Shown here one piece after another: positions 6,244-37,940 of a stretch of DNA of 37,940 nucleotides. The position numbers were made by a program, and so were the translations under genes. The number at the start of each line of letters is the position of its first letter. The stretch's first letter is position 1. This stretch comes from a virus (taxonomy: Duplodnaviria > Heunggongvirae > Uroviricota > Caudoviricetes): the IMG/VR virus record IMGVR_UViG_2859783438_000005. One strand, given 5' to 3'. The notes beneath the pieces were generated by a model. It saw only the letters and a program-made list of their open reading frames with translations, was not told the origin of the DNA and did no database searches.

Positions 6244-8208
6244 ATGACGGCAGAGTACATCAGGGACTGGCAACAACCGCGCCACGCAGTGGGGCGTGAA
6301 GGAACGGGGATCCCCGCTCCTGAATCCGCGCTTTCCTCCTGGCTGGATGCCCACCGGGCAGAGAACGAGCGCCGCCAGGAAATGGCTGATGCGGCGTTCT
6401 CCGCCACGCCACTGGGCAACCTGATTAATAAAAGCCTGGACGCACAGGAAAAACAGGACAAAACCATCACACTGGCAGGAGACGCCAGAAAACAGGCACG
6501 CGGCGCGGTGGATGAAGCCATGGCCTCGCTGCGCCTGCTGCCGTCCTATCTGCGCGATCCGCTTATTCGCCACCTCTCCTTCCTGCGCAAAAAACAGGAA
6601 GCCGATCGCCGGAAAGGCAAAAAGAGCTGGCAGGCGGAACGCTATGCACGCGGAACCCTGCGCAAAATATTCGAACGTCTGGATCGCACTGACGGACACT
6701 GGCTGACACCGGGTTATCGCTCCCTTGCCGGACGTGAACGCCTGGACGATTTGCTTTACCTGCCGCAACTCAACAAACACCAGATACAGACGCTGGCCAC
6801 CATGACGGCGGCGATGTTCAGCAGCACCTTCGAAAAACTCTGCGATGGTTTTGGCGCGACTGATGGCGAGCTGACCATGGATGTAACGCTGAAGGCGTAT
6901 CAGATGCTGGCCCGCATGGCGTTACACTTACACGCCATGCCTCCGCATTATGACGCACTGACAACAGACAAAGACCGGAGGCACGAACCGGACACAGAAC
7001 TGCTGCCGGGCGCAATCCTTCGCCTGACCTGTGCGGAATGGTGGAAACGCAAACTGTGGCTGTTACGTTGCGAGTGGAGAGAAGAACAACTTCGCGCCGC
7101 CTGTCTGGTTTCCAGAAAAACATCGCCCTATCTGAGCCAGGACGCGTTAAGCGAGTTTCGCGCACAGCGCGAGAAAACACGCGATTTCCTGAAAAGTTTC
7201 ATGCTGGAAAATGAAGACGGGTTCACGATTGATCTCGAGACGGTGTATTACGCGGGAGTAAGTAACCCGGTTCACCGTAAGGCAGAAATGATGGCCACCA
7301 TGAAGGGGCTGGAACTTCTGGCCGAAGCCCGTGGCGACAAAGCGGTGTTTCTGACTGTCACCTGCCCGTCAAAATACCACGCCACAACGGAGAACGGTCA
7401 TCCGAATCCCAAATGGAACGGGGCCACAATGCGCGACTCCAGCGATTACCTGGTTAACACGTTTTTTGCGACGGTCCGCAAAAAACTGAACCGCGACGGC
7501 CTGCGCTGGTATGGCATCCGCACGGCGGAGCCTCACCATGACGGCACCGTGCACTGGCATATGATGGTCTTTGCTCATCCGGAAGAAATCGACACCATTG
7601 TGTCCCACACCCGCGATATTGCCATTCAGGAAGATCGTCACGAGCTGGGCGATGACATAACTCCGCGCTTTAAGGCGGAGTATGTAGACGGCTCAAAAGG
7701 CACGCCAACCAGCTACATCGCCACCTACATCGGGAAAAACCTGGACAGCCGCGCCGTGGATGGCATCGACCCGAAAACGGGCAAGCCACGCGTTGACCAC
7801 GAAACCGGAAAATCAATGGCCGAGAGCGTGGAACGCGCCATCGGCTGGGCGCGCCTTCACCGGGTCCGCCAGTTCCAGTTCTTTGGCATCCCCTCCCGCC
7901 AGGTATGGCGTGAACTGCGCCGCCTTGCCAGCCAGATGGCACGCAACCCGGAAGGCCCGCAACGGCTGAAGGATGACGCAATGGATGCGGTTCTTGCCGC
8001 CGCTGATGCCGGATGTTTTGCCACCTACATAGAGAAACAGGGCGGCGTACTTGTTCCACGCAAAGACTACCTGATTCGCACCGCCTACGACCTCGCCGAT
8101 GAGCTGAACGATTACGGCGAACAGAGCGTACAGATTTACGGGATCTGGTCACCACTCATCGGGGAATCCTCCGTGTGTGCACGCATCCGGATAACTGGAA
8201 GCTGGTAA
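6244..8208 (+). CDS. A: rolling-circle replication initiator endonuclease (P2 gpA family)
   Basis: 654-aa ORF; HUH-type motif region ...AEPHHDGTVHWHMMVFAHPEE... and the position at the end of the early operon match P2/186 A. Confidence 0.85.
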   Translation: MTAEYIRDWQQPRHAVGREGTGIPAPESALSSWLDAHRAENERRQEMADAAFSATPLGNLINKSLDAQEKQDKTITLAGDARKQARGAVDEAMASLRLLPSYLRDPLIRHLSFLRKKQEADRRKGKKSWQAERYARGTLRKIFERLDRTDGHWLTPGYRSLAGRERLDDLLYLPQLNKHQIQTLATMTAAMFSSTFEKLCDGFGATDGELTMDVTLKAYQMLARMALHLHAMPPHYDALTTDKDRRHEPDTELLPGAILRLTCAEWWKRKLWLLRCEWREEQLRAACLVSRKTSPYLSQDALSEFRAQREKTRDFLKSFMLENEDGFTIDLETVYYAGVSNPVHRKAEMMATMKGLELLAEARGDKAVFLTVTCPSKYHATTENGHPNPKWNGATMRDSSDYLVNTFFATVRKKLNRDGLRWYGIRTAEPHHDGTVHWHMMVFAHPEEIDTIVSHTRDIAIQEDRHELGDDITPRFKAEYVDGSKGTPTSYIATYIGKNLDSRAVDGIDPKTGKPRVDHETGKSMAESVERAIGWARLHRVRQFQFFGIPSRQVWRELRRLASQMARNPEGPQRLKDDAMDAVLAAADAGCFATYIEKQGGVLVPRKDYLIRTAYDLADELNDYGEQSVQIYGIWSPLIGESSVCARIRITGSW

Positions 8209-25778: not shown

Positions 25779-26306
25779 TTACTCAGGCTTTTGTGGCCAT
25801 TCTGGCTTTGCCGTATCCACACGGCTGACCAGAACACTGTAGCGTTCCCATGCTTCCAGTCGTGTGCGTTCCTCGTCCGTCGCCATATTCAGCCTGACAG
25901 CGCGTTCCAGCGGCTGGATGACTGATTCAGCTTCGGAAAGCAATGCGGCCTTTTGTGATTCGGCCTGTTGTTGCTGTTCGTCAGCCGTATAAATCCGTTT
26001 AACCACAGCTCCGTCCTTAAACATCCACTTACCGGAATCATCAGCACGACGATTAGCTGTAATATCAGGAACCTCAACGACGCTATAACCTTCAGGGTTA
26101 AGCGTGGAGGCATCTTTGGTGATGGCGACAATAATATTATTTGCATCGTAAACAATCTTTATTGTGTCTGGCTGAAAGTTCTTCACTTCCTCATACCAGT
26201 TTTTTCCGTCCTCAGAGTAAAGCCAGATGACTCCGTGCTTCTTTGTTAACTCATACTGCTCCACTGTTTTAGCATTACCTGCTTTTATGTTCTTTAAGTG
26301 CATCAT
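25779..26306 (-). CDS. alternative tail fibre assembly protein (Tfa') of the inverted cassette
   Basis: track ORF 25779..26339 trimmed to Met [11 protein letters not shown]; paralogue of G. Confidence 0.7.
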
Positions 26307-26307
26307 A

Positions 26308-26949
26308 TTAAATACTCGCCACATTATACCAAGTGCCATTTATATACTTTTGCACTGGCCTGTAATGAACGCCTGCAATATTATCGGCAGAGTTTTTTCC
26401 GGTATCCTGTACGTTAATCCCCGTCAGTACATAGCCTGACGGGCACTGAAAATTCCATGTTTGCCAGTTGTTCACTCCATAATATTGCTGTGAACCAAGT
26501 CGAACATCTTTCACATATCTGGAATCAAAATTGCCATAGTTGCCGGGAATAACTTGCGAGCCGCAAAGCCAGTTCCCGTTATTATCCATGTACGCCTGAC
26601 CATCGGTGCCATTGGCTGTCCTTGAGTTATTAATCATGTAGATGCCAAATTGCTTATTTCCCAGACCGCCAATCATAAATTTGCGGTCGGCATGGTCCTG
26701 ACGGAGCAAAGCCTGAGCACCATCAGTGGATACCGCATTACGTCCCAAAATAACATTCTGGTCACGCATATGAATCCACATGCCGGTACTACTGTTAATT
26801 GCAAAACGGTTTGCAAATATATCCCCTGTAACATCAAGACCATGCCCCATGCTTATCCGGCCAGTTCTGAGATTAAGCGTAAAGGGGCGTAGTGGCCCTA
26901 TATTACCATTTTCCCCTTCATTCTCTCGTGTAGGATGATATGCAGGCAT
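26308..26949 (-). CDS. alternative tail fibre C-terminal receptor-binding cassette (H'v), promoterless; upstream part lies in another frame
   Basis: ends ...[16 protein letters not shown]...[16 protein letters not shown] as in the P2 H C-terminus; the 5' continuation to the gix site (26898..27309) is in a different frame. Confidence 0.55.
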
Positions 26950-27309
26950 TCTTCAGAACGACGAAAAATGGCACCAAAAGATGAATTAAATATCCTCAGT
27001 GCATTGACTGTCGATATTTTCACTTCACTGCTGAAAAGGGCTTCAACAAGAACAGACAAAGCATTCCATTTAAGATTCATCAGGTCTTTAGGCCGGGTGC
27101 CAATGATGCGGTGTCTCCATTTGAAATATTCATTGCCGTTGTTGCCTGTTTCAAACCACATGTAGGAATCGGTGTCTGCATCCGAATTATTTTTAAACCC
27201 AATCTTTGCCCAGTCAGTATTTCGAATCCAGGCAAGGATTGAGTCGTTTTCAAAAGTAAGTCCACCGGACAACGTATCGCCATTTTTTTGCACGGCGTTA
27301 CCAGCCTTG

Positions 27310-27334
27310 TTTACCGTTTCCTGTAAACCGAGGT
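27310..27334. repeat. gix/hix-like recombination site B (right inverted repeat), interrupted by IS insertion
   Basis: tttaccgtttcctgtaaaccgaggt; the rest of the predicted site (tagataa) is displaced to about 27850 beyond the IS. Confidence 0.65.
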
Positions 27335-27335
27335 T

Positions 27336-27846
27336 TGAGGTGTACTGGCAATAGCGGACACTACCATTTGTTCTTTTTTTAAGCAGCCATCTGATGATAT
27401 TTTTCCCTGAAGGCTGCCGGGGAGATATTCCCCAGACGAGAGTGACGACGCTGACGATTGTAGAAAATCTCAATGTATTCCCGTATTACTGAGATGGCTT
27501 CATCCCGGTTATTAAAACGATAGTGGCTCAGGCTCTCATTTTTCAGCGTTCCCCAGAAGCTTTCCATCGGAGCGNNNNNNNNNNNNNNNNNNNNNNNNNN
27601 NNNNNNNNNNNNNNNNNNNNNNNNNNNNNNNNNNNNNNNNNNNNNNNNNNNNNNNNNNNNNNNNNNNNNNNNNNAAGAGATAATCGGGAAGCGCCTTCAC
27701 TGATCGAAAGTTGATTTTCAAGAACCGTTCTGACAGCTTCGGCTTTGAACTCTTTAGAGTAACGTTGGGTTTTTCTGCTCATTATTAGCTCCTTCTGATG
27801 CCATTCTATTTCAGGAAGGAGTGTCCGTTAAACTCAGGCTACCTCA
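27336..27846 (-). mobile_element. IS3-family insertion sequence (IS600-like), interior unresolved by an assembly gap
   Basis: terminal inverted repeats tgaggtgtactggcaatagcggacactacc (27336-27365) and ggaaggagtgtccgttaaactcaggctacctca (27814-27846); 3-bp GTT direct repeats at 27333-27335 and 27847-27849; OrfA N-terminus MSRKTQRYSKEFKAEAVRTV and OrfB C-terminus ...FYNRQRRHSRLGNISPAAF on the minus strand. Confidence 0.7.
27575..27674. other. assembly gap (100 N)
   Basis: run of exactly 100 n inside the IS element; the true length of the missing sequence is unknown. Confidence 0.95.
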
Positions 27847-27911
27847 GTTTTAGATAATGGCCGTTTCCGGCCTGCATGGCATGATTTGCGCTTTTGGACG
27901 GGAGATTCAGC

Positions 27912-28499
27912 GTGCTGATTGGCTATGTAAGGGTATCAACAAATGACCAGAATACAGACCTGCAACGAAACGCTCTTGTTTGTGCAGGATGTGAACAAAT
28001 ATTTGAAGATAAATTAAGCGGGACAAAGACAGACCGACCGGGATTAAAACGCGCTTTAAAGCGCCTTCAAAAAGGTGACACGCTGGTTGTCTGGAAACTG
28101 GATCGCCTCGGGCGAAGCATGAAACATCTGATTTCTCTCGTCGGGGAACTACGGGAGCGAGGAATTAATTTTCGCAGTCTGACCGACAGCATAGATACAT
28201 CTTCTCCAATGGGGCGTTTTTTCTTCCACGTGATGGGTGCCCTGGCTGAAATGGAACGTGAATTAATTGTTGAACGTACACTGGCCGGACTGGCGGCAGC
28301 ACGCGCACGGGGGCGCACAGGCGGACGTCGACCGAAGCTGACAAAAGAACAGCATGAGCAAATAGCAAGGCTGATCAAAAACGGGCACGACAGAAAACAA
28401 CTGGCAATAATTTACGGCATTGGTATATCGACGATTTATCGTTACCACCCCGCAGGAGAATCAATCGGAACAATAGAGAAGAGTCAGGAAACAAAATAA
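27912..28499 (+). CDS. serine DNA invertase (Gin/Pin/Hin/Cin family)
   Basis: track ORF 27894..28499; from the GTG at 27912 the protein reads MLIGYVRVSTNDQNTDLQRNALVCAGCEQIFEDKLSG..., nearly identical to Gin/Pin as I recall them (catalytic Ser in VRVSTNDQ). Confidence 0.88.
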   Translation: MLIGYVRVSTNDQNTDLQRNALVCAGCEQIFEDKLSGTKTDRPGLKRALKRLQKGDTLVVWKLDRLGRSMKHLISLVGELRERGINFRSLTDSIDTSSPMGRFFFHVMGALAEMERELIVERTLAGLAAARARGRTGGRRPKLTKEQHEQIARLIKNGHDRKQLAIIYGIGISTIYRYHPAGESIGTIEKSQETK

Positions 28500-28534: not shown

Positions 28535-29029
28535 TCAGAACAACCCTTTAACTGAACTGGCCGCGCTGTTAAGGGATGATGTTACCTTATCTTTGAAGCC
28601 GGACAGCATATCGCTGAACGATGAGGATTGCAGGCGCTCCCGCAAATCCTCATCACAGCGTTCAAGAGTCAGTGAAAATTCTATCTTTTTCGCCTTACCG
28701 TAGCGATCAAACTCGGAGCGGGTCGTATTCGTTTCGGTCAGGACATACATGCCGTAAATCTGCCCGACGCCATCAATCAGAGGCCAGGGTCGTCCTGTAT
28801 ACGCCTGCGTGGTCAGCAGCGACAGCGACACTTCGCCACCTGTAATTTCAGGATAAAGCACACCAGAAAGAACGATGCGCTCATCACCTGCACCGATATA
28901 CTGCCAGCTTGCCGAACGGTTAACGCGTTCATTTTTCACATGCCGCCAGCTTTTGTTTTGCTGTAACTGCTGATGCGGCAATGTACGCAGCTCAAAAACA
29001 AACATGCCGTAGATCATCATCATGGCCAT
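28535..29029 (-). CDS. U: tail protein U (P2 gpU family)
   Basis: 164-aa ORF; resembles P2 U as I recall it (MMM...FVF...SWRH...); start among several N-terminal Met. Confidence 0.75.
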   Translation of the reverse strand: MAMMMIYGMFVFELRTLPHQQLQQNKSWRHVKNERVNRSASWQYIGAGDERIVLSGVLYPEITGGEVSLSLLTTQAYTGRPWPLIDGVGQIYGMYVLTETNTTRSEFDRYGKAKKIEFSLTLERCDEDLRERLQSSSFSDMLSGFKDKVTSSLNSAASSVKGLF

Positions 29030-29035
29030 GACTCC

Positions 29036-31879
29036 TCAATCTTTATCGTAAAAACTGCCACGCCCGGCACGGGCGCGCCGTTCCATTTCTGCCCTGACCA
29101 TTTCACCGACCAGTTTCGCCAGTTCGCGGGGATTCTGCGTAACAACGTTATGCAGATGAACATGAATTTCACCACCAAATCCGGAGGCAACAGGCTCCCG
29201 GTTACGGGAAGTTACAGGAACTGATGCCACTGGAGAGCGTATGGCCTCCGCCACCGGGCGGGAGCTGGCCGCAACAACAGGGACCAGCGCCGGAGGCAGC
29301 GGAGCCGGGACCACGGGTGTGATATTAATTGCGGGGGCAGGCTTACTGACCTGCGCAATCTTCCGCTCCTGCCACTCCCCACGAACAGCAAGTGCGCGGG
29401 GCAGGTTCTTAAAGACAATATCGCCGGGGCCAATGCGTTTTTTCGTCTCATCAACCAGCTTACCTGTGTTATCAGCAATTTTGCTGAGTCTGCGTAGCGT
29501 CCCGGTATTGCTGTCTGTGAGCGGTTTGTTGTCTTTGGGTTTATCACCTCCGGTGCCATTGCCATTTTCCACAGGCTTCGGCGGATTGATTTTCGCCAGG
29601 TTCCCCTGAAGCAAGGCAACCTTGTCCTGAAGAATGGCCGCACGCTGTGCGTCTTCGATTTTCTTGCGCGCCCTTTCCGCTTCATCCGGAAGGACGCCAA
29701 GTTTTTCAAGTATCCACGCCAGCGTATCCAGTAGCATTTTTGCAGGTGTCAGAACAAGTTGTAACGCACCGCCAAGAACGTTACCGAATATCTCGCCAGC
29801 ACTGGCACATTTATCCAGCGTTTCCTTGCTGGACTCCATCGGTGACAGCAGCGATTTAAACCAGTTAAAGACCTGAATAATCCCATCGCGCACGACATCA
29901 AAAACAGGGCCAAACCGTTCAAAGGTTTCGCGCAACGGGGTCAGCCTTTCCATAATCCCGCTGAACACCCCGGCAAAAAATGCCCTGATGGGATCCCAGT
30001 ATTTCCAGATAAGAACGGCAGCTCCGGCAAGCGCAGCCACGATAAGACTAACCGGACTGAACAGCGCCCCGATAGCGCCACCAAGTAAAGAAACGGAACC
30101 CGTCACCATTCCCCATAATGCAGGCAGAACCCTGACAACATTCATTGATTCGGTCAGGAGAGAAAAACCGAGACGCAACGTAGCCAGCTTCCCGTGAAGC
30201 ACCCCAATAACCAGAGACAACGAACCAACCGTTGCTGTTGTCGCCAGCAGTGCGCCTCCCGCTATCAGTAACTGGCGCGTCAGTGCCGGGTGGGCCTGCG
30301 CCAGCGCCGTCACCTTTGAGACAACCCGCGTGAGCCACTGCGTGACAGAACGCAGCGGACCGTCAACCAGATCACTGATGCGAATACGCAGACCTTCCCA
30401 TGCACTGCCGAGTGATTTCAGGTTGCCATCAAGGTTATTGGCCATAACCTTTGCCGTGCGTTCTGCCTCACCGCGCGCGCCTTCAAGTTCTTTTCTCAGT
30501 TTGGCTAAGAAGCCGTCACCTGCCGCATCAACGAGGCCCATAAATGATGTGAAAGCCTCTTCTCCGGCAATGTCCTTAAAGAACGATACCCGGTCAACCT
30601 CCCCGTATTTGCGGGTGGCTTTATAGAGATCGGCCAGCACATTCTCCATCGGGCGCATTTTGCCTTTGGCGTCAGCAACTGACACCCCCAGCTCTTTCAG
30701 TGCTTCTGCCGCTGCCTTTGGCGGTGATGACAGATTGGCCAGGCTTTTACGCAACGCTGTACCTGCATCACTCCCCCTGATACCCATCTTCGCCAGCACG
30801 CCCGCCATCGCTGCGGCCTGCTCCAGCGATATTCCCAGCTTACCCGCCACCGGACCTGCATATTTCATGGTTTCGCCCAGTGCGCGAAGGTCAGTGTTGG
30901 TACGGGTAAACGCTGCGGTAAGTGTGTCACCGACCCGGTCCATCTGGTCAGCAGAGAGGCCGAACTGCGTCAGGATATTGGAACCAATATCCGCCGTCTC
31001 GCCGAGGTCCATACCGCCAGCCGTTGCCATGCTCAGCACGCCGGGAAGCGCAGCCTGAATGGCCTGCGGTGTGAAACCAGCCATTGCAAGAAATGCCTGT
31101 CCACTGGCGGCATCGCCTGCGGTGAACTGCGTTTCAGAGCCAAGTTTTAACGCCTGCTCACGCAGCGCCTTAAACTGCGGGCTGTTTTTATCGATTCGCG
31201 TCAGTGCCTGAACACGGGACATCTCTTTCCCGAACCCGATAGCGGGCTGCAAAAAACGCCCGGCAGCATAGCCGCCCGCTGCCGCCGCACCTGTTGCCAG
31301 CGCACCACCTGTTTTCAGTTTTCCCGCTGTTTCCTGCGCGCGTGAATACCGCTCACGCGCCTGCGTTACACGCGCAAGCGCCCGCCGTTCGCGTTCAAGC
31401 TGGTTGTTGTATTGTCCGGTGCGTCTGATGGCCTGCTGGATGGTGTTATCGCTGCCTGTCAGGGAAATGCCGTGGCGTTTCAGCTCTCCGCCAAGTTCCC
31501 GCATTTTCTGAATTTCCCGTGTGCGCGATTCATTCAGGCGTTCAAGCCGGGTGCTTAACTGCTGCATCAGCTTTTGTTGTTTTTCGCTGAGCACTGTACC
31601 CGTGCGTTGTAACTGATTAAGGGCGTTAAGCTGGCGTCGTGCTTTCACGATGCCCGCATCCGCTTTACTGACAGCGTCACGGGCGCGCTCAAATGAACGC
31701 GCCTGACGCTCGAGATTTTTGATCGCCCCCTGCGTTCGCTGGATGGAGTCACCAAACTGCCCCATCAGGCGGCGGGCGTTTTCGGCAGGCCGGGTCAGCC
31801 TGTCAACGGCGCTGAAAGCGACCCGGATATCAAGAGTCTTCATTGTCTGCATTCCCGCTGCGAAGTGCCGCCCGCTCAC
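29036..31879 (-). CDS. T: tail tape measure protein (P2 gpT family)
   Basis: 947-aa Ala/Gly-rich ORF with coiled-coil N-terminus and hydrophobic central region, directly downstream of E/E'; start uncertain (GTG 31879, ATG 31852 or 31843). Confidence 0.85.
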   Translation of the reverse strand: MSGRHFAAGMQTMKTLDIRVAFSAVDRLTRPAENARRLMGQFGDSIQRTQGAIKNLERQARSFERARDAVSKADAGIVKARRQLNALNQLQRTGTVLSEKQQKLMQQLSTRLERLNESRTREIQKMRELGGELKRHGISLTGSDNTIQQAIRRTGQYNNQLERERRALARVTQARERYSRAQETAGKLKTGGALATGAAAAGGYAAGRFLQPAIGFGKEMSRVQALTRIDKNSPQFKALREQALKLGSETQFTAGDAASGQAFLAMAGFTPQAIQAALPGVLSMATAGGMDLGETADIGSNILTQFGLSADQMDRVGDTLTAAFTRTNTDLRALGETMKYAGPVAGKLGISLEQAAAMAGVLAKMGIRGSDAGTALRKSLANLSSPPKAAAEALKELGVSVADAKGKMRPMENVLADLYKATRKYGEVDRVSFFKDIAGEEAFTSFMGLVDAAGDGFLAKLRKELEGARGEAERTAKVMANNLDGNLKSLGSAWEGLRIRISDLVDGPLRSVTQWLTRVVSKVTALAQAHPALTRQLLIAGGALLATTATVGSLSLVIGVLHGKLATLRLGFSLLTESMNVVRVLPALWGMVTGSVSLLGGAIGALFSPVSLIVAALAGAAVLIWKYWDPIRAFFAGVFSGIMERLTPLRETFERFGPVFDVVRDGIIQVFNWFKSLLSPMESSKETLDKCASAGEIFGNVLGGALQLVLTPAKMLLDTLAWILEKLGVLPDEAERARKKIEDAQRAAILQDKVALLQGNLAKINPPKPVENGNGTGGDKPKDNKPLTDSNTGTLRRLSKIADNTGKLVDETKKRIGPGDIVFKNLPRALAVRGEWQERKIAQVSKPAPAINITPVVPAPLPPALVPVVAASSRPVAEAIRSPVASVPVTSRNREPVASGFGGEIHVHLHNVVTQNPRELAKLVGEMVRAEMERRARAGRGSFYDKD

Positions 31880-32359
31880 GCCAGCTAACCACTTCGCCGG
31901 GCGTCATCATGAAGATTTCGGCGGGCGACCAGTTAAAAATGGCGGCAATATCCGCCACAAAGTCTTCTATGTGCTCAAAGCACACAACCGTGATCAGGCT
32001 TCCGTCGCCTGTTCGTTCTTCTCGCCAGAGTCCGCACCGCTCAAAAAATTTACGGCAACCACACATAACTGAATAAAGTCACGGGATGCCATTTTTTTGA
32101 TCGTCACTTCATCCAGTCGCGGTGATGTCACGCGTGACAGCAGCGTAAACATGGATTCCGCTTTCAAATTCAGCACATCAGACAGCGACAAATCTCGCAG
32201 AGATCCAGCCTGCTCAATAGCCCCGGTGATCTCCACATACGTGATTTTTTCGCCGCCTCGCTCAATTGGTTGGGTAAGTTTTACGCCACGCTCACTGGTT
32301 TCTTTCACAGTGTCAGCAACGACCGTGTTTTCGGTATCGATGTTTTTCGTCTCTTTCAT
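31830..32359 (-). CDS. tail assembly chaperone E+E' fusion made by programmed -1 ribosomal frameshift
   Basis: slippery site TTTTTTG (plus-strand caaaaaa at 32042-32048); the -1 frame continues as ...FFERCGLWREERTGDGSLITVVCFEHIEDFVADIAAIFNWS... to a stop at 31830, overlapping the T start. Confidence 0.55.
31994..32359 (-). CDS. E: tail assembly chaperone E
   Basis: 121-aa ORF between FII and T; contains a T6G slippery heptamer near its 3' end. Confidence 0.7.
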   Translation of the reverse strand: MKETKNIDTENTVVADTVKETSERGVKLTQPIERGGEKITYVEITGAIEQAGSLRDLSLSDVLNLKAESMFTLLSRVTSPRLDEVTIKKMASRDFIQLCVVAVNFLSGADSGEKNEQATEA

Positions 32360-32413
32360 CAGGAAACTCCTTTCAGTCAGAGGCGACGCACTGCGCCGCC
32401 TGCATATTACTTA

Positions 32414-32926
32414 TCAGCCAAGCCCGAGCGCGGAACGGATGCGATCGGGCACAATGTCCCTGCCGTCCTTCCGGTAAATGAAGTTCAGCAGGTCAATCTC
32501 CCACAACGGGCGATCGTTAACACTCAGCTTGTAGTAGGTGTTTTTAATGGCGTAAGTGTGTGATGTGGCTTCGCCCTGTTTGGCTTCCCCCATATCAATT
32601 TCCGTCACACGTCCGCGCATTTCGACTTCATACAGGTCGCTTTCAGCGTCGGTGTAGTATTCACCCGCAAAACGCAGCAGCGTACCGTCAATCGTGCCGC
32701 CATACTTAAGGAACAGCTCACGAACTGCGCCCCCCATGACAAAGCTCGCATCAAGCGCGGAGTCATCCAGGCCGAGATCAATACTTACCGCTCCCATCAT
32801 GCCACCACCCCGGTAGCTGTCGGTTTTGCGCGTCAGCTTAGGCAGAGTGACGGACGTCACCTTACCCACTTCGTTTTCACCATCCACAAACAGCGTAAAA
32901 AAGCGAAGATGTTTTGGTACAGCCAT
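32414..32926 (-). CDS. FII: tail tube protein (P2 gpFII family)
   Basis: 170-aa ORF immediately downstream of FI. Confidence 0.85.
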   Translation of the reverse strand: MAVPKHLRFFTLFVDGENEVGKVTSVTLPKLTRKTDSYRGGGMMGAVSIDLGLDDSALDASFVMGGAVRELFLKYGGTIDGTLLRFAGEYYTDAESDLYEVEMRGRVTEIDMGEAKQGEATSHTYAIKNTYYKLSVNDRPLWEIDLLNFIYRKDGRDIVPDRIRSALGLG

Positions 32927-34110
32927 CAGGCACCTCCCAGCACCGCAAATGCGGGACCAAAGAATTCATCAGTAAACGACTGGTAAAGCTCCATGTCTTC
33001 CAGCGGGGGAACAGGCGTATATTTGTAGCGAATACGCACGCGCCCCTGACGTAAATTCGTGGTGCCGTTATCCACCACGTCATACCAGCACGACGCCCCA
33101 ATCAGTTTCCCGGCAGTAACCAGTGAATCCAGTTTTGCCCTGATGGCACCGATAACATCCTTCACGTTCGCAGGCGTCAGTGGACTGTCGATGGTTTCAA
33201 ACTGCGCTTCCGCAATTGAATCAGCCAGCACCTGTGCGGTTCGGGTATACACCTCAAAGATGTAGGCGTTCGTTTCCGGTGTGCGGTTGCCCCAGAAGCG
33301 GAACCCGTTGCGACGAATAATGGTCGTGATTTCTTTGTTGTTGAGGCTGTTGGCATCACTGTCTTCGGCCTGCAACGACCAGAACACATGCCTGGACATC
33401 CCCAGCACATTTTTAACCGGAACGTTGGACAGCGATTTGTGCCAGCCCTGCTCATGGTCAATGTACGCACGAAGGCCGCACGCATAGGCAGGCGCGGGGA
33501 ACGTTTCGTTTTTGCCACTTTTCGGGTTGTAGGCGATGAAGTCCGGCCATAAGAGCATCACCTCACGTTCGTTGAATTTCTGGCGGTAGGTAATTGCCTC
33601 AGCCATCGTGTTACAGTCATGACATGAGGCATACACAAACGCGCGCAGTTTACCCGCAATCACGCACAGGGATTTTGTCACCGCCTCCGTGTCCAGCTCC
33701 GGCGCGGCCAGAATACGCGGACGGTATCCGATGCTTTCATCCTGCTCTGCAACAAGCAGCGCATACATCCCCGTATAGCTGCCGTCAGATTCAGAACCAC
33801 CGATAACCAGTTGATCCTGCGTTTTTCCGTCTTCTTCTTTGTGTTCAGCCACGCGAACGACGATCACCTTTGTGCTCACCTGGTCTGCGATGGCCTTAAG
33901 CGCACGATAAAGCGTCCCCGTTGTTCCGCATTTTCCCAGCACGTCATTGACGCGGGGCAGCAGTGTGGGCTTGTTCAGCGGGAACAGCTCCGCGTCCGCA
34001 TCATCCGCCGTTGCCACGATACCGATAACGCTGGAATCAACATCGTTAATCGCTGTTACCAGGTCGGTATTTTCCGTAACACGGGCACCATGAAAACGAG
34101 TTTCACTCAT
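32926..34110 (-). CDS. FI: tail sheath protein (P2 gpFI family)
   Basis: 394-aa ORF; conserved blocks shared with P2 FI (DADAE.FPLNKP, QKLRAF, WPDF, EQGWHK.LSNV, IRR.GFRFWGNRT, YTRTAQV.AD, YTPVPPLE); AAGGGG RBS. Confidence 0.9.
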   Translation of the reverse strand: MSETRFHGARVTENTDLVTAINDVDSSVIGIVATADDADAELFPLNKPTLLPRVNDVLGKCGTTGTLYRALKAIADQVSTKVIVVRVAEHKEEDGKTQDQLVIGGSESDGSYTGMYALLVAEQDESIGYRPRILAAPELDTEAVTKSLCVIAGKLRAFVYASCHDCNTMAEAITYRQKFNEREVMLLWPDFIAYNPKSGKNETFPAPAYACGLRAYIDHEQGWHKSLSNVPVKNVLGMSRHVFWSLQAEDSDANSLNNKEITTIIRRNGFRFWGNRTPETNAYIFEVYTRTAQVLADSIAEAQFETIDSPLTPANVKDVIGAIRAKLDSLVTAGKLIGASCWYDVVDNGTTNLRQGRVRIRYKYTPVPPLEDMELYQSFTDEFFGPAFAVLGGA

Positions 34111-34267
34111 AGCTTCAACCCCTTGTATCCGTTAAATGATTCGGCAACAATCATCACCCACCACGCGCGTAATCTCACCCCTGCGCCATTCTCCCGCCAC
34201 GGCGACAACAAAAAGCAGTAACCCCCTCCGCACGCACATGCGACCATGCCACACAGGGAGGGAGCAG

Positions 34268-35377
34268 ATGACCGACACCACCATGCAATTGCTCAGTCAG
34301 GGCACAGACCCCGTGAAAATGCCGGATTTTGATATTCTCGCGGAGGGTAAAACGCTGTCAGGCGTGGCAGAGCGCCTGATGAGCCTGTCACTGACCGACA
34401 ACCGGGGATTTGAGGCGGACCAGCTCACCATCACGCTGGATGATGCGGATGGTCAGTTGCAGCTACCGCCACGGGGCGCGCGCCTGACGGTTCTCATTGG
34501 CTGGAAGGGAGAACCGCTGACAGAAAAAGGCACTTACATTGTTGATGAAATCGCTCACGAAGGACCGCCGGACAGGCTGACTGTTTCAGCCAGAAGCGCA
34601 GATTTTCGGGCTGAATTTAACGTTAAACGTGAGGTGTCCTGGCATGATGTGACCGTTGAGCGTGTGGTATCCGCCATCGCTCATCGGTATGGTCTGAAAC
34701 CGCAAATCAGCGAAATGCTGATGGATATCGAAATCGACCACGCCGACCAGACCGAAGAAAGCGACATGTCCTTCCTTACGCGCATGGCGGAAATGCTGGG
34801 CGCAATCACCACGGTAAAAAGCGGTAATCTGTTATTCATCATGCCCGGTGGTGGCGTGAACGCACAGGGCCAGCCGTTGCCCTCGTTCGCCATCACACGC
34901 AGCAGCGGCGATCGCCATCAGTTCCGCATTGCTGACCGCGAAGCGTATACGGGGGTACGCGCTTACTGGCTTGATCTTAATTACGGGAAAAAGAAAAAAG
35001 TCAGCGTGAAACGCCGCAAACCGTCAAAACCAAAAAAGGAGAAAAGCAGCAGCCGGGAAGGCGACTATATGGAAGGTGCGGAAGGCAACGTGTTTGTGTT
35101 ACGCAAAACTTATCAGAACGAGCAGGCAGCAAGACGTGCAGCGGCGGCAAAGTGGCAGCAGCTACAACGCGGAGCCGCATCATTCTCCATCACACTGGCG
35201 CATGGACGTGCAGAACTCTACCCCGAAATGCATGGCACGGTAACAGGATTTAAAAGCGAGATTGATAATCAGGACTGGATTATTGCAAAAGCCGAGCACA
35301 CCATTGATAACAGCGGCTTTACCACGCAGCTTGAGCTTGAGGCAAAAATCCCGGAATGGATAGCAGAAACAGAGTGA
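34268..35377 (+). CDS. D: tail protein D (late control gene D family)
   Basis: track ORF 34136..35377 trimmed to Met MTDTTMQLLSQGTDPV preceded by an AGGGAGGGAG RBS; about 369 aa. Confidence 0.85.
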   Translation: MTDTTMQLLSQGTDPVKMPDFDILAEGKTLSGVAERLMSLSLTDNRGFEADQLTITLDDADGQLQLPPRGARLTVLIGWKGEPLTEKGTYIVDEIAHEGPPDRLTVSARSADFRAEFNVKREVSWHDVTVERVVSAIAHRYGLKPQISEMLMDIEIDHADQTEESDMSFLTRMAEMLGAITTVKSGNLLFIMPGGGVNAQGQPLPSFAITRSSGDRHQFRIADREAYTGVRAYWLDLNYGKKKKVSVKRRKPSKPKKEKSSSREGDYMEGAEGNVFVLRKTYQNEQAARRAAAAKWQQLQRGAASFSITLAHGRAELYPEMHGTVTGFKSEIDNQDWIIAKAEHTIDNSGFTTQLELEAKIPEWIAETE

Positions 35378-35539
35378 GCAACTTAAATGTATTAACTCAG
35401 AACGGATCAACACACTCACAACATAGAGTCAATATAGCTGCTCGCTTTGTTCCAGCAAGGATGCCTATTTCTAAGGAAAAACAGAGCAGAAACATATGGT
35501 GTTTTCCTACCTGACATCAGGGGTGGTAAGAATCATGCT

Positions 35540-35567
35540 TTGATAACCAATTGATAACTATTATTAT
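35540..35567 (+). promoter_or_regulatory. candidate sigma-70 promoter for the PIN-like island gene
   Basis: TTGATA - about 16 nt - TATTAT in AT-rich DNA, about 35 nt upstream of the start; GAGG RBS at 35594-35597. Confidence 0.3.
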
Positions 35568-35602
35568 ATTAATCTAACACCATTGACATAGTTGAGGTTT
35601 GA

Positions 35603-37105
35603 ATGAACAAAAAGCTGTATTTATTCCCAGACTCAAACATTTTTCTACAATGCAAGGACTTGACGCAGGTAAATTTTTCCGAGATTACTGCTTGTGATGA
35701 AGTATGTATCATTATTACAAGGCCCATTCAGCAAGAGATTGACCGCCAGAAAGGGCAAGGTAATTCCCGCCTATCCAAAAAAGCAAGGAAGGCTGCTAGC
35801 CTATTTAATCAAGTAGTTGATTCAACTGACATGACTCTTGTTATTCGTGAACGCTCGCCGCGAGTTTTTCTTACCATGGATCTAAGCCTGAAACCATGTG
35901 AACAGTTATCTGAACAATTGGATTATCAGGAGGCCGACGATCGTTTTGTTGGTATTGCGGCAGGGTATTGCGCTGACGATCCAGATTCGGAGGTGGCAAT
36001 CATTACCAATGATAGCGGTCCACGTTTTTCAGCAATAAAACATAATATAATCTGCTATAAAGTGCCTTCTTCATGGTTGCTTCCTGCTGAGCCAGATGAA
36101 AAGGATAAACAAATTAAATTGCTGGAAGCTAAGCTGAAGCAATTCACTCAGTCTATGCCCGATTTCAGCATTAAAGTAGCCGATGACGAGCAATTAAATA
36201 TTGTACTTCCTTATTATACAGCTTTATCTGAATATGAAGTTGATAATTTGCTTTGTCAACTAACGGATGCATTCCCATTGGTTACAAACTTTGACAATGA
36301 ACAAACTACCCCACAATCACTAGAAAAAATCATCAAGTCATTTAGTCAACAGGAGTATTTCCCTGTATCAGCAGATGATATTTCTCTTTATAAAGAAAAA
36401 CATTATCCACTTTGGAAAAAGCAGTGTGAAGAAATACTGAAAAACTGTCATACTCATATTAATCCGAAGGCAATAAATTACCCGCTGTCGTTTTTATTAC
36501 AAAACACAGGTTATACTATCGCTGAACGTGCTGTGGTAACATTTACAGCAAAAGGAGATTTTCGTCTGTGTGGATTTAATTGGGAGATAATGGAAGAGCT
36601 GACTGAAAGCAAAAGGATTGACCTACCTTCAGCCCCTACCGCCCCCAAAGGAAAATGGCGTAGTGTATGTGGCGTAACAGAAAGAATGCCTTACGCTGGG
36701 GGAGCTTTGGAAACACCGCTATCCAGTATAATTTCAAAAGAAATTGGTCCTTTGTTATCTCTTACTCCAACAGAAAGGGATAAAAACGATTTTTATTATA
36801 AAGAAAAGAGAAATGAGCCAGTTCAAGTTGTATCGCTGGAATGCGAAGAGTGGCGTCATCAAGTCAAAGAAGAAATATTCCCGTTGTTCGTATATACAGC
36901 CAACAAACCAAAGAAAGTGAATGGTGCAATTGAGGTGAGAGTTGATGCAAATAACCTTACCAATCCGGTCATTAAAACATTTAAATTAAAAATAACTATA
37001 GAAGAACATAGTGCATTTTCAACCATAACAGAAATGGTGCAGACATACATTCAAGAGCAGAAGAAAAGACAGAAAAGTTCTATTAGCGCACAAATCAAAA
37101 CATGA
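35603..37105 (+). CDS. 500-aa protein with PIN-like N-terminal domain (putative nuclease) and unrecognised C-terminal domain
   Basis: single long ORF in markedly AT-rich DNA; N-terminal ~150 aa show a PIN-like layout of conserved acidic positions (YLFPDSNIFL ... TRPIQQEIDRQ ... DD ... IITNDSGPR). Confidence 0.6.
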   Translation: MNKKLYLFPDSNIFLQCKDLTQVNFSEITACDEVCIIITRPIQQEIDRQKGQGNSRLSKKARKAASLFNQVVDSTDMTLVIRERSPRVFLTMDLSLKPCEQLSEQLDYQEADDRFVGIAAGYCADDPDSEVAIITNDSGPRFSAIKHNIICYKVPSSWLLPAEPDEKDKQIKLLEAKLKQFTQSMPDFSIKVADDEQLNIVLPYYTALSEYEVDNLLCQLTDAFPLVTNFDNEQTTPQSLEKIIKSFSQQEYFPVSADDISLYKEKHYPLWKKQCEEILKNCHTHINPKAINYPLSFLLQNTGYTIAERAVVTFTAKGDFRLCGFNWEIMEELTESKRIDLPSAPTAPKGKWRSVCGVTERMPYAGGALETPLSSIISKEIGPLLSLTPTERDKNDFYYKEKRNEPVQVVSLECEEWRHQVKEEIFPLFVYTANKPKKVNGAIEVRVDANNLTNPVIKTFKLKITIEEHSAFSTITEMVQTYIQEQKKRQKSSISAQIKT

Positions 37106-37348
37106 GGGTGTACTCAAATAATACAATGCTATAGTAAATCTATAAGTGCATAACTATTTCCTGATCTTTTCCCAAAATAGATGACAGGATAAAAAACATT
37201 CCAATCTTTTACAGGCTTTGGATAAATCGTATCAAAGCCTATTTCTTCAAGAGTTAAATCACCGCTTTTCGCTCGAAACGGACTGGCTGTTGGAGTATGA
37301 GCCAGAACAACTTAGAATAGCCCCTGCACTACGTTAAGGGAGGTCGCT

Positions 37349-37609
37349 ATGTTCCGTTGTCCGCTTTGTGGCGCATCTGCCCGTATCCGCACCAGTCGTC
37401 CGGAAAATGATTCAAACACCGTGCGGCAAAAGTATTACCAGTGTAACAATCTGGAATGCGGCGTATGCTTCTCAACACTGGAAGCTTTCCATAAATTCAC
37501 ATCAAAACACGCCTCCGGCGTTCACTCTTCAGAAGATATCCCGTGGCATGATCTGCCAGCTTCACACAGGGGAAACAATCAGATGAGCTTGCCTTTACCT
37601 CAGAATTAA
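37349..37609 (+). CDS. ogr: late gene transcriptional activator, zinc-finger (Ogr/Delta family)
   Basis: 86-aa ORF MFRCPLCGASARIRTSR...YYQCNNLECGVCF, matching the Ogr CPLC...RTSR...QC.N..C zinc-finger pattern; AGGGAGG RBS. Confidence 0.85.
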   Translation: MFRCPLCGASARIRTSRPENDSNTVRQKYYQCNNLECGVCFSTLEAFHKFTSKHASGVHSSEDIPWHDLPASHRGNNQMSLPLPQN

Positions 37610-37799
37610 CAGGCAGAATTGCCGGAGTAACAAAAAAGCGATAGATTACGCGCGGGTGCCTTTCGGCTGATGGTCGGAGGGAATACCCGAAGGCCAGATG
37701 TGGAAAGGCCCCGGAAAACATCTCTGTTTAACCGAGGCCCTAACCGCATTACCTTGACAAGTGAAAGGTTAGCGCCTCTCCGGAAAAGGAGCAAGTGCT

Positions 37800-37940
37800 A
37801 TGTCGCAAAAATCGCTTACGACCATCACGTTCTGCGTGACGGCAATCCTCATCATCTGGATGTTGCACGGTTCGCTGTGTGAAATACGGATGAGCTTCTG
37901 GGGAGCGGAGTTTGCGGCGTTCTTACAGTGTAAGCAGTAA
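37800..37940 (+). CDS. Hok-family type I toxin (small membrane peptide)
   Basis: 46-aa ORF MSQKSLTTITFCVTAILIIWMLHGSLCEIRMSFWGAEFAAFLQCKQ: one TM segment then SLCEIR...AAFL.CK as in HokA-type toxins; GGAG RBS; overlapping mok-like frame 37670..37882 in the track; structured GC-rich leader upstream. Confidence 0.55.
   Translation: MSQKSLTTITFCVTAILIIWMLHGSLCEIRMSFWGAEFAAFLQCKQ

Follow-up and report, generated by a model that had tools for sequence, protein, structure and literature searches.

Why does a P2-like prophage carry approximately 2 kb of AT-rich DNA between two core genes that canonically lie almost side by side, and what does the one gene in it do? The question is raised by a 37,940-nucleotide stretch of P2-like prophage DNA (IMG/VR record IMGVR_UViG_2859783438_000005), referred to below as the window, in whose coordinates positions are given unless another locus is named. 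Here the tail gene D runs to 35377 and ogr begins at 37349, as assigned by the Pfam families Phage_GPD and Ogr_Delta, leaving a gap of 1,971 bases. Over 35250-37350 the GC fraction is 0.32-0.45, down from about 0.55 in the tail genes, and the island between the two genes has a GC fraction of 0.379 compared with 0.526 in the remaining window. The interval holds one long open reading frame (ORF) only, at 35603-37105 on the plus strand, which starts with ATG and encodes a 500-residue protein identical to RefSeq WP_001035742.1, a "PIN domain-containing protein". It is not a chance ORF, because a first search found 52 full-length homologues at E≤1e-3, 469-521 amino acids long and down to 28% identity. 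An earlier reading of this DNA made from the letters alone (the sequence-only reading) had described the AT-rich island and its single ORF as we find them, and had proposed a horizontally acquired nuclease gene with the profile of an anti-phage effector. We consider it probable, with some confidence, that the island is a self-contained, mobile, single-gene anti-phage module of the abortive infection type, carried as cargo of the prophage and encoding an auto-inhibited PIN RNase.

A PIN_4 nuclease domain fused to a conserved C-terminal module

Residues 1-155 of the protein are a genuine PIN_4 domain with an intact acidic tetrad, D10/E45/D112/D137. PIN_4 (PF13638) is the sole Pfam match and covers residues 10-151 (E=4.5e-8; 33.9 bits, the curated cutoff being 21.9). 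The acidic positions on which the sequence-only reading had based its assignment are all present, as PDSN (residues 9-12), QQEID (43-47), DD (112-113) and ITND (134-137), and D10, E45, D47, D112 and D137 are invariant or nearly so in alignments of the homologues. An AlphaFold2 (AF2) model built from 41 sequences has a mean predicted local distance difference test score (pLDDT) of 85, rising to about 90 over residues 1-155, where strands alternate with helices in the three-layer alpha/beta/alpha arrangement of a PIN fold. Foldseek searches with this region of the model match the PIN domains of SMG6 (2hww), Dis3/Rrp44, Nmd4 and AF0591, with 1o4w and 8rdd among the structures hit; the SMG6 match, 2hww_B, has an E-value of 8.8e-5 and a template modelling (TM) score of 0.61 on the target.

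By sequence the match is weak. A sequence-profile search of the Protein Data Bank (PDB) with the full-length alignment found nothing, and with the PIN domain alone it gave only a weak match to SMG6 (E 0.13). In this profile alignment, weak by sequence, D10, E45, D112 and D137 stand opposite the SMG6 motifs PDTN, NELD, NDD and TDD, which hold its catalytic residues D1251, E1282, D1353 and D1392. The substrate of SMG6 is single-stranded RNA, not single-stranded DNA (PMC5499597). The window protein thus shares with the SMG6 and PIN_4 endoribonucleases a Pfam family, a fold and four aligned catalytic acidic residues, and a metal-dependent nuclease activity is predicted for it from sequence and model. 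SMG6 differs in being a eukaryotic nonsense-mediated decay factor with 14-3-3-like and EBM regions, to which the 340-residue C-terminal module of the window protein is unrelated.

This second part of the protein, which the sequence-only reading did not recognise, matches nothing described: searches covering residues 160-500 against Pfam, PADLOC, NCBIfam, PHROG, PDB profiles and structures found no described family or known enzymatic fold. In the model a linker helix and a small alpha/beta subdomain are followed by an Ig-like beta-sandwich and a C-terminal amphipathic helix (Table 1). The alpha/beta subdomain carries the conserved residues Y263, Y268, W271, C275 and H283, and the beta-sandwich carries the strongly conserved motifs NxG, LPxPPxAPxGxW, RDPNxFYYK, ECEQWRH and HAxNL. 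The module also contains an invariant quartet of the form Cys-x7-His...Cys-x4-His (C275, H283, C414 and H419), kept even at 29-33% identity in relatives embedded in restriction-modification (R-M) operons, and could bind zinc or another metal.

The fusion of PIN domain and C-terminal module is ancient and fixed. An exhaustive hidden Markov model search with the module alone found 1,641 representatives of clusters at 50% identity at E≤1e-3, 746 of them at E≤1e-30, and architecture was read from the best 150 of the 1,641. Nearly all of these are proteins of about 500 amino acids in which the module starts close to residue 160, and PIN_4 was found in nine of ten sampled members (eight above the Pfam cutoff and one just below it); it is this constant starting point and the recurrence of PIN_4 that mark the fusion as old and stable. 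The only top match in which the module is not preceded by a PIN domain is P0065, a metagenomic protein of 745 amino acids. Its N-terminus is that of a multi-pass membrane protein with a weak Wzy_C match and its tail is of low complexity; it is probably an assembly or gene-call chimera and not a real domain swap.

A mobile gene in a variable cargo slot

Relative to an empty D-ogr site the net insert is 1,929 bp, flanked by a 7-bp direct repeat, CAACTTA, at 35379-35385 and 37308-37314. The island is carried by 59 of 5,426 complete E. coli genomes, each at least 99% identical (99.9% among the 15 records listed), and the listed matches include many O111 strains. In one of these, O111:H- 11128, the coding sequence is annotated WP_001035742.1 and the prophage adjoins ihfA-pheT. 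Rfam detects no RNA family within the island.

The D-ogr junction is a variable cargo slot. Flanks matching D and/or ogr occur in 1,205 E. coli records, from which a systematic sample of 52 with both flanks joined was examined. In 33 of these (about 63%) the site is empty, with only 42 bp between the two genes, in keeping with the canonical order given by the sequence-only reading, in which D is followed almost directly by ogr. The other 19 sites are occupied by ten different contents, so that the variability which that reading had proposed to look for across related prophages is present: three sites hold this island and 16 hold something else, namely a SEC-C/YecA protein, DUF2971, DUF3800, an unrelated PIN_12 protein, four hypothetical proteins or IS1. 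Each of the nine cargo loci inspected has a single annotated gene, in either orientation. Among the minor hotspots, the slot may correspond to one that iLund4u describes as "tail protein to CI regulator".

The PIN_12 protein in this slot (E. coli ECL27829, L009:1151-2221; WP_074516378.1, 356 amino acids, Pfam E 1.3e-20) was considered as a relative of the window protein and rejected, there being no similarity between the two. BLASTP did not establish a relationship between it and the PIN protein of the defence system DS-5 (E 1.9).

Nine unrelated cargoes at this junction (those of the window and of loci L009 and L011-L017) have conserved ends in common that are absent from the empty site. The consensus ends, CAACTTAGATGTATTAACTCAGAC... 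on the left and ...CTCAAAGCGGACTGTCAGTTGGAGTCTGAGCTAGTACAACTTAGAAT on the right (35379-35410 and 37267-37314 in the window), form a 32-nt imperfect inverted repeat matching at 24 of 32 positions, a score reached by 2 of 2,000 shuffles. On either side of them stands a 9-bp direct repeat, CAACTTAGA (19 of 2,000 shuffles), of which the empty sites have a single copy. The inverted repeat is significant in the consensus only, and not in individual cassettes, and the right-end element was found nowhere else in the window or at other loci save for a weak match in Rahnella. These ends could be a signal for exchange, as in transposons or cassettes. Alternatively, they could be what is left of an ancestral spacer, with deletion having occurred between the repeats.

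The gene moves alone, between cargo sites. Its closest relative (73% identity) lies between S and V of a P2-like prophage in Rahnella, and the A-Q "old/tin" hotspot holds relatives in Enterobacter (52%) and in the IMG/VR P2-like contig L083 (68%); together with D-ogr in E. coli the family therefore occupies three P2-like cargo sites. A Pectobacterium copy is found in an integrative and conjugative element (ICE), between regulatory and type IV secretion genes, and one metagenomic copy adjoins a Gabija-like ATPase-helicase pair with integrases on the flanks. The enterobacterial loci have no conserved neighbour gene. At the DNA level the E. coli copy is homologous to that of Rahnella over the gene with 142 bp upstream and 180 bp downstream, including a hairpin described below, and the gene is AT-rich relative to each host examined. 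Low GC, the other cargo sites and the ICE all bear out the earlier view of a self-contained, horizontally acquired gene.

Distant relatives were sought by scanning one genome per species, which gave 56 loci in Proteobacteria, Dehalococcoidia, Acidobacteriota, Gemmatimonadota, Latescibacterota, Planctomycetota, Verrucomicrobiota and Bacteroidota. When the neighbouring ORFs of the 49 full-length loci were clustered, three recurrent families emerged, identified with Pfam as HsdM, HsdS and HsdR. A type I R-M (hsd) context is present in 13 of the 49 loci, from at least five phyla, and the complete same-strand order hsdM-hsdS-PIN-hsdR in nine; the R-M-embedded copies keep the catalytic residues and the architecture. 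Among 125 neighbour ORFs of the loci outside R-M operons, a PADLOC scan identified HEC-04, GajA, Old, AbiEi/AbiEii and PDC-S04.

Some of these loci hold further genes. In Enterobacter asburiae the A-Q hotspot that contains the PIN homologue also encodes a divergent ATPase of 509 amino acids (L003:5825-7351), matched by PADLOC to HEC-04 with an E-value of 3.8e-44, and this one hotspot therefore has two candidate defences. In three loci the ORF just 5' of the PIN gene (L020:4533-5999, L021:4428-5996 and L024:4329-5969) joins an MNT-like, Pol-beta-type nucleotidyltransferase N-terminus to HsdS target-recognition domains, and several R-M-embedded loci have small ORFs between hsdM and hsdS. R-M operons with the PIN gene seem to share further embedded modules, possibly HEPN/MNT-like.

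Proposed function of the island and competing explanations

In the scheme that we infer for its defence activity, RNA substrate, auto-inhibition and trigger, the protein would be a Mg2+/Mn2+-dependent PIN_4 (SMG6-like) endoribonuclease permanently fused to a regulatory or sensor module of approximately 340 residues. In a lysogen the gene's own promoter would drive expression, and the C-terminal module would keep the product inactive. A cue from infection would then free the nuclease, RNA (tRNA, rRNA or mRNA) would be cut, translation would stop and the incoming phage would be blocked. The likeliest cue would be a phage protein or nucleic acid to which the beta-sandwich binds or, for relatives embedded in R-M operons, inhibition of the type I restriction enzyme with which they are partnered. 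A role in defence is strengthened by the presence of relatives in type I R-M operons and beside HEC-04, Gabija, AbiE and Old genes, and the family is a strong candidate for a new anti-phage defence family, although one of a known general kind.

The setting is also familiar from other P2 cargo. Like the contents of the P2/P4 defence hotspots, old, tin and Z/fun are AT-rich, dispensable cargo of one or a few genes between core genes (Rousset 2022; NAR 2026 gkag898), and P2 defences move between hotspots just as this family does, which is also found in the classical A-Q site. D-ogr differs in not being one of the two classical P2 hotspots, and the window protein is unrelated to Old, Tin and Fun.

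The protein belongs to no named system, as the sequence-only reading had said, and the nearest comparisons are with defences whose effector is a PIN protein. DS-3 (DefensePredictor, WP_022645725.1) is a validated single-protein E. coli defence that requires its PIN catalytic residues and has no cognate antitoxin. It is a protein of 340 amino acids whose VapC-like PIN domain is split between the N- and C-termini, whereas that of the window protein is contiguous over residues 10-151, and identity with DS-3 was rejected (BLASTP E 4.6, hhalign probability 0.2%). HEC-03 (ABC ATPase and PIN) and DS-5 (DUF5830/AcrIF4-like and PIN) also have PIN effectors and are experimentally supported defences, but both are two-gene systems and the window protein has no partner gene. 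This excludes DS-5; as for HEC-03, there is no HEC-03B match, though PADLOC includes HEC models, and no ATPase gene in the island. The partners described for bacterial PIN_4 proteins are PhoH ATPases or the antitoxins of toxin-antitoxin (TA) modules (PMC5499597), and the window protein has neither. PhoH2, which combines PIN_4 with a PhoH ATPase, was rejected since there is no PhoH match and the C-terminus is a beta-sandwich.

Several points weigh against a defence role. PIN domains also serve housekeeping RNA processing and TA modules. The window protein has no significant match in PADLOC-DB v2 (none at E≤1), NCBIfam or PHROG, and WP_001035742.1 was not found in the parts of the DefensePredictor supplements that were searched. 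Structure matches of the beta-sandwich are generic and uninformative on a ligand, and the C-terminal module can be called a sensor by analogy only, as no effector swapping on it was seen among the best 150 of the 1,641 matches. Only some of the 36 distant loci outside R-M operons, of the 49 in all, have recognisable defence neighbours. A tblastn search of 50,697 deposited phage genomes found no match. As for independent expression, the promoter proposed by the sequence-only reading, TTGATA-N16-TATTAT, is present, agrees with the consensus at 10 of 12 positions and is partly conserved in the Rahnella copy, but promoter-like sites are no commoner in the region than in shuffles (6 found, 6.4 expected), and it therefore remains a candidate. 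Set beside these points, no homology to a structural or housekeeping protein was found, the PIN fold is present, and the gene is not fixed at its site. No paper naming the family was found, in a search that left out Brenes & Laub 2025 (a reported PIN defence in E. coli prophages), and this leaves a residual risk to novelty.

We regard as unlikely, though not far-fetched, that the family's main task is to guard type I R-M systems in the manner of PrrC, monitoring the type I enzyme and firing once it has been disabled by an anti-restriction protein of a phage. On this view the stand-alone prophage copy would watch over a type I system resident in the host or, like PARIS, would respond to the anti-restriction protein itself. 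PrrC, a latent anticodon nuclease, is set free when T4 Stp inhibits the restriction enzyme EcoprrI (PMC12707154). The likeness to PrrC (ecoprrI) lies in the outline of a single-gene latent RNase and in the hsdS-X-hsdR slot, which the nine distant family members with the complete operon order also occupy on the same strand, with the same architecture and invariant residues. PrrC differs in having an ABC-ATPase-like N-domain and an anticodon-nuclease domain and no PIN fold, and no sequence similarity connects its domains with the window protein. The window copy is not embedded in an R-M operon, its neighbours being D and ogr; this feature belongs to the 13 distant homologues only, and hsd genes adjoin neither the other 36 nor any enterobacterial copy examined. 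Genes embedded in R-M operons are, moreover, often independent defences, BrxU being an example (the guilt-by-embedding logic; Payne 2024).

A broader picture, to which we attach an equally low probability, is of a widespread PIN-based PrrC analogue, a latent RNase whose beta-sandwich would serve to guard type I restriction enzymes or to sense anti-restriction proteins, with the prophage copy as a portable version arming any host and with D-ogr served by dedicated cassette exchange. The last element is suggested by the inverted-repeat-like ends and the 9-bp direct repeat common to unrelated cargoes.

Rather improbable is a fused TA or addiction module, in which a PIN toxin and an antitoxin-like C-terminal domain in cis would stabilise the carrier element and have no specific function against phages. 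Toxins of TA modules are most often PIN domains (PMC5499597), copies of the gene travel on prophages and an ICE, and there is a hok/sok addiction module 550 bp downstream. The protein shares with VapC of the VapBC type II TA modules a PIN fold, an acidic tetrad and the logic of an RNA-cleaving toxin. VapC, in contrast, is a protein of approximately 130-150 amino acids with an adjacent VapB gene, whereas the window protein is a 500-residue fusion. Neither 35378-35602 nor 37106-37348 contains a VapB-like antitoxin ORF, there is no small ORF upstream, and no neighbour other than hsd is conserved across loci. A VapBC module was rejected on these grounds, with no antitoxin gene, a length of 500 amino acids and a fixed C-terminal module. 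An antitoxin that is covalently fused could not give post-segregational killing through differential stability, and the R-M-embedded and defence-island contexts of the relatives are typical of immunity genes.

It is more improbable still that the protein is an RNase or DNase serving the phage (for example in shutting off host RNA, processing transcripts or scavenging nucleotides) and is co-transcribed with the late gene D. The gene shares its strand with D and ogr, with no terminator detected between D and the coding sequence, and some phages encode PIN_4-PhoH proteins (PMC5499597). The gene is, however, dispensable to the prophage, because it is present in only 59 of approximately 1,200 E. 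coli genomes with this prophage lineage and most related sites are empty. Its relatives are found in non-phage contexts (the ICE and chromosomal R-M operons), and no homologue occurs in the 50,697 phage records or, beyond matches to the bare PIN fold by Foldseek, among the viral structures of BFVD. Least probable is a PIN-like nuclease directed at phage DNA (flap- or structure-specific, or restriction-like) and giving direct and not abortive immunity; like the addiction and phage-serving explanations, it is less consistent with dispensability at the site, non-phage contexts and the closest structural relatives.

If the abortive-infection reading were confirmed, the single-gene immune systems would gain a large family, spanning many phyla and comprising at least 1,600 clusters at 50% identity. 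It would come with a tractable E. coli representative, having one catalytic domain and one sensor-like module, in which to study how a PIN RNase is kept latent and triggered. Because relatives recur between hsdS and hsdR, the idea of a "restriction guardian", for which PrrC and PARIS are the present examples, becomes directly testable in a new family. The D-ogr site of P88/Xuanwuvirus-type P2-like prophages would also stand as a productive slot for single-gene cargo, with its PIN_12, DUF3800, DUF2971 and SEC-C/YecA proteins and four hypothetical proteins as further candidates.

Coordinates, expression signals and the rest of the prophage

The features of the island and its flanking genes are collected in Table 1. 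The ribosome-binding site expected by the sequence-only reading is present, and its context, GTTGAGGTTT, is identical in the Rahnella copy. The hairpin which that reading had placed between the gene and ogr is also there, with a folding free energy of -10.7 kcal/mol (z = -2.1; 4 of 200 shuffles fold equally well). That it is a real structure is supported by one stem pair which varies T-A / T.G / C-G over three homologous loci, and it is likely to be a weak intrinsic terminator that moves with the gene.

Table 1. Positions of the island, its parts and the adjoining core genes in the window
Feature	Position	Strand	Basis or remark
Upstream core gene D	34136..35377	+	Longest ORF from 34136; RefSeq starts correspond to 34268 or 34577
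Inserted cargo island, including both flanking 7-bp direct repeats	35379..37314	+	Comparison with the empty D-ogr site of UTI89
Left cassette end AATGTATTAACTCAGAAC...	35386..35410	+	Alignment of nine occupied loci and the empty site
Mobile unit by DNA homology to the Rahnella copy	35461..37285	+	blastn, 78% identity over 1,842 bp
Candidate sigma-70 promoter TTGATA-N16-TATTAT	35540..35567	+	10/12 consensus positions; plausible
Ribosome-binding site GAGG	35594..35597	+	5 nt 5' of the ATG
Coding sequence, 500 aa, PIN_4 and C-terminal module	35603..37105	+	ATG start; identical to RefSeq WP_001035742.1
PIN_4 (SMG6-type) nuclease domain, aa 1-155	35603..36067	+	Pfam, alignments, AF2, Foldseek, SMG6 alignment
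Linker helix (aa 166-183) and small alpha/beta subdomain with long helix (aa 185-288)	36098..36466	+	AF2; conservation
Ig-like beta-sandwich (aa 290-470; disordered loop 358-388)	36470..37012	+	
Cys/His quartet codons	C275 36425-36427; H283 36449-36451; C414 36842-36844; H419 36857-36859		
C-terminal amphipathic helix (aa 472-499)	37016..37099	+	AF2
Hairpin AGGCTTTG-N12-CAAAGCCT, then ATTTCTTC	37213..37240	+	Fold; conserved in Rahnella and L083
Right cassette-end element TTTCGCTCGAAACGGACTGGCTGTTGGAGTATGAGCCAGAAC	37267..37308	+	Alignment; nhmmer profile
Downstream core gene ogr (late-gene activator)	37349..37609	+	Ogr_Delta

Other parts of the prophage deserve brief mention. The hok/sok-type module directly 3' of ogr (37654-37940) comprises a Hok/Gef ORF (37800-37940) and, at 37654-37813, a match to the sok model of Rfam, which at 48.4 bits (E 4e-9) is below the gathering score of 59; a module of this type accompanies ogr in all related prophages inspected. 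A serine invertase gene (27894-28499; Resolvase and HTH_7) lies beside the minus-strand genes for tail fibre and tail-fibre assembly (25779-27473). The GpU-T-E-FII-FI block (28535-34110) is on the strand opposite D, and is therefore inverted compared with the canonical P2 order, with FI and D divergent; invertase-associated inversions in P2-like phages are mentioned in the iLund4u preprint. The A-Q hotspot of the window prophage (8175-11002) has two ORFs without a Pfam or PADLOC match (8175-9065, 296 amino acids, and 10478-11002, 174 amino acids) and a ParM/StbA-type segregation gene at 9142-10101, and in the Enterobacter prophage L003 a ParM/StbA gene adjoins the PIN homologue too.

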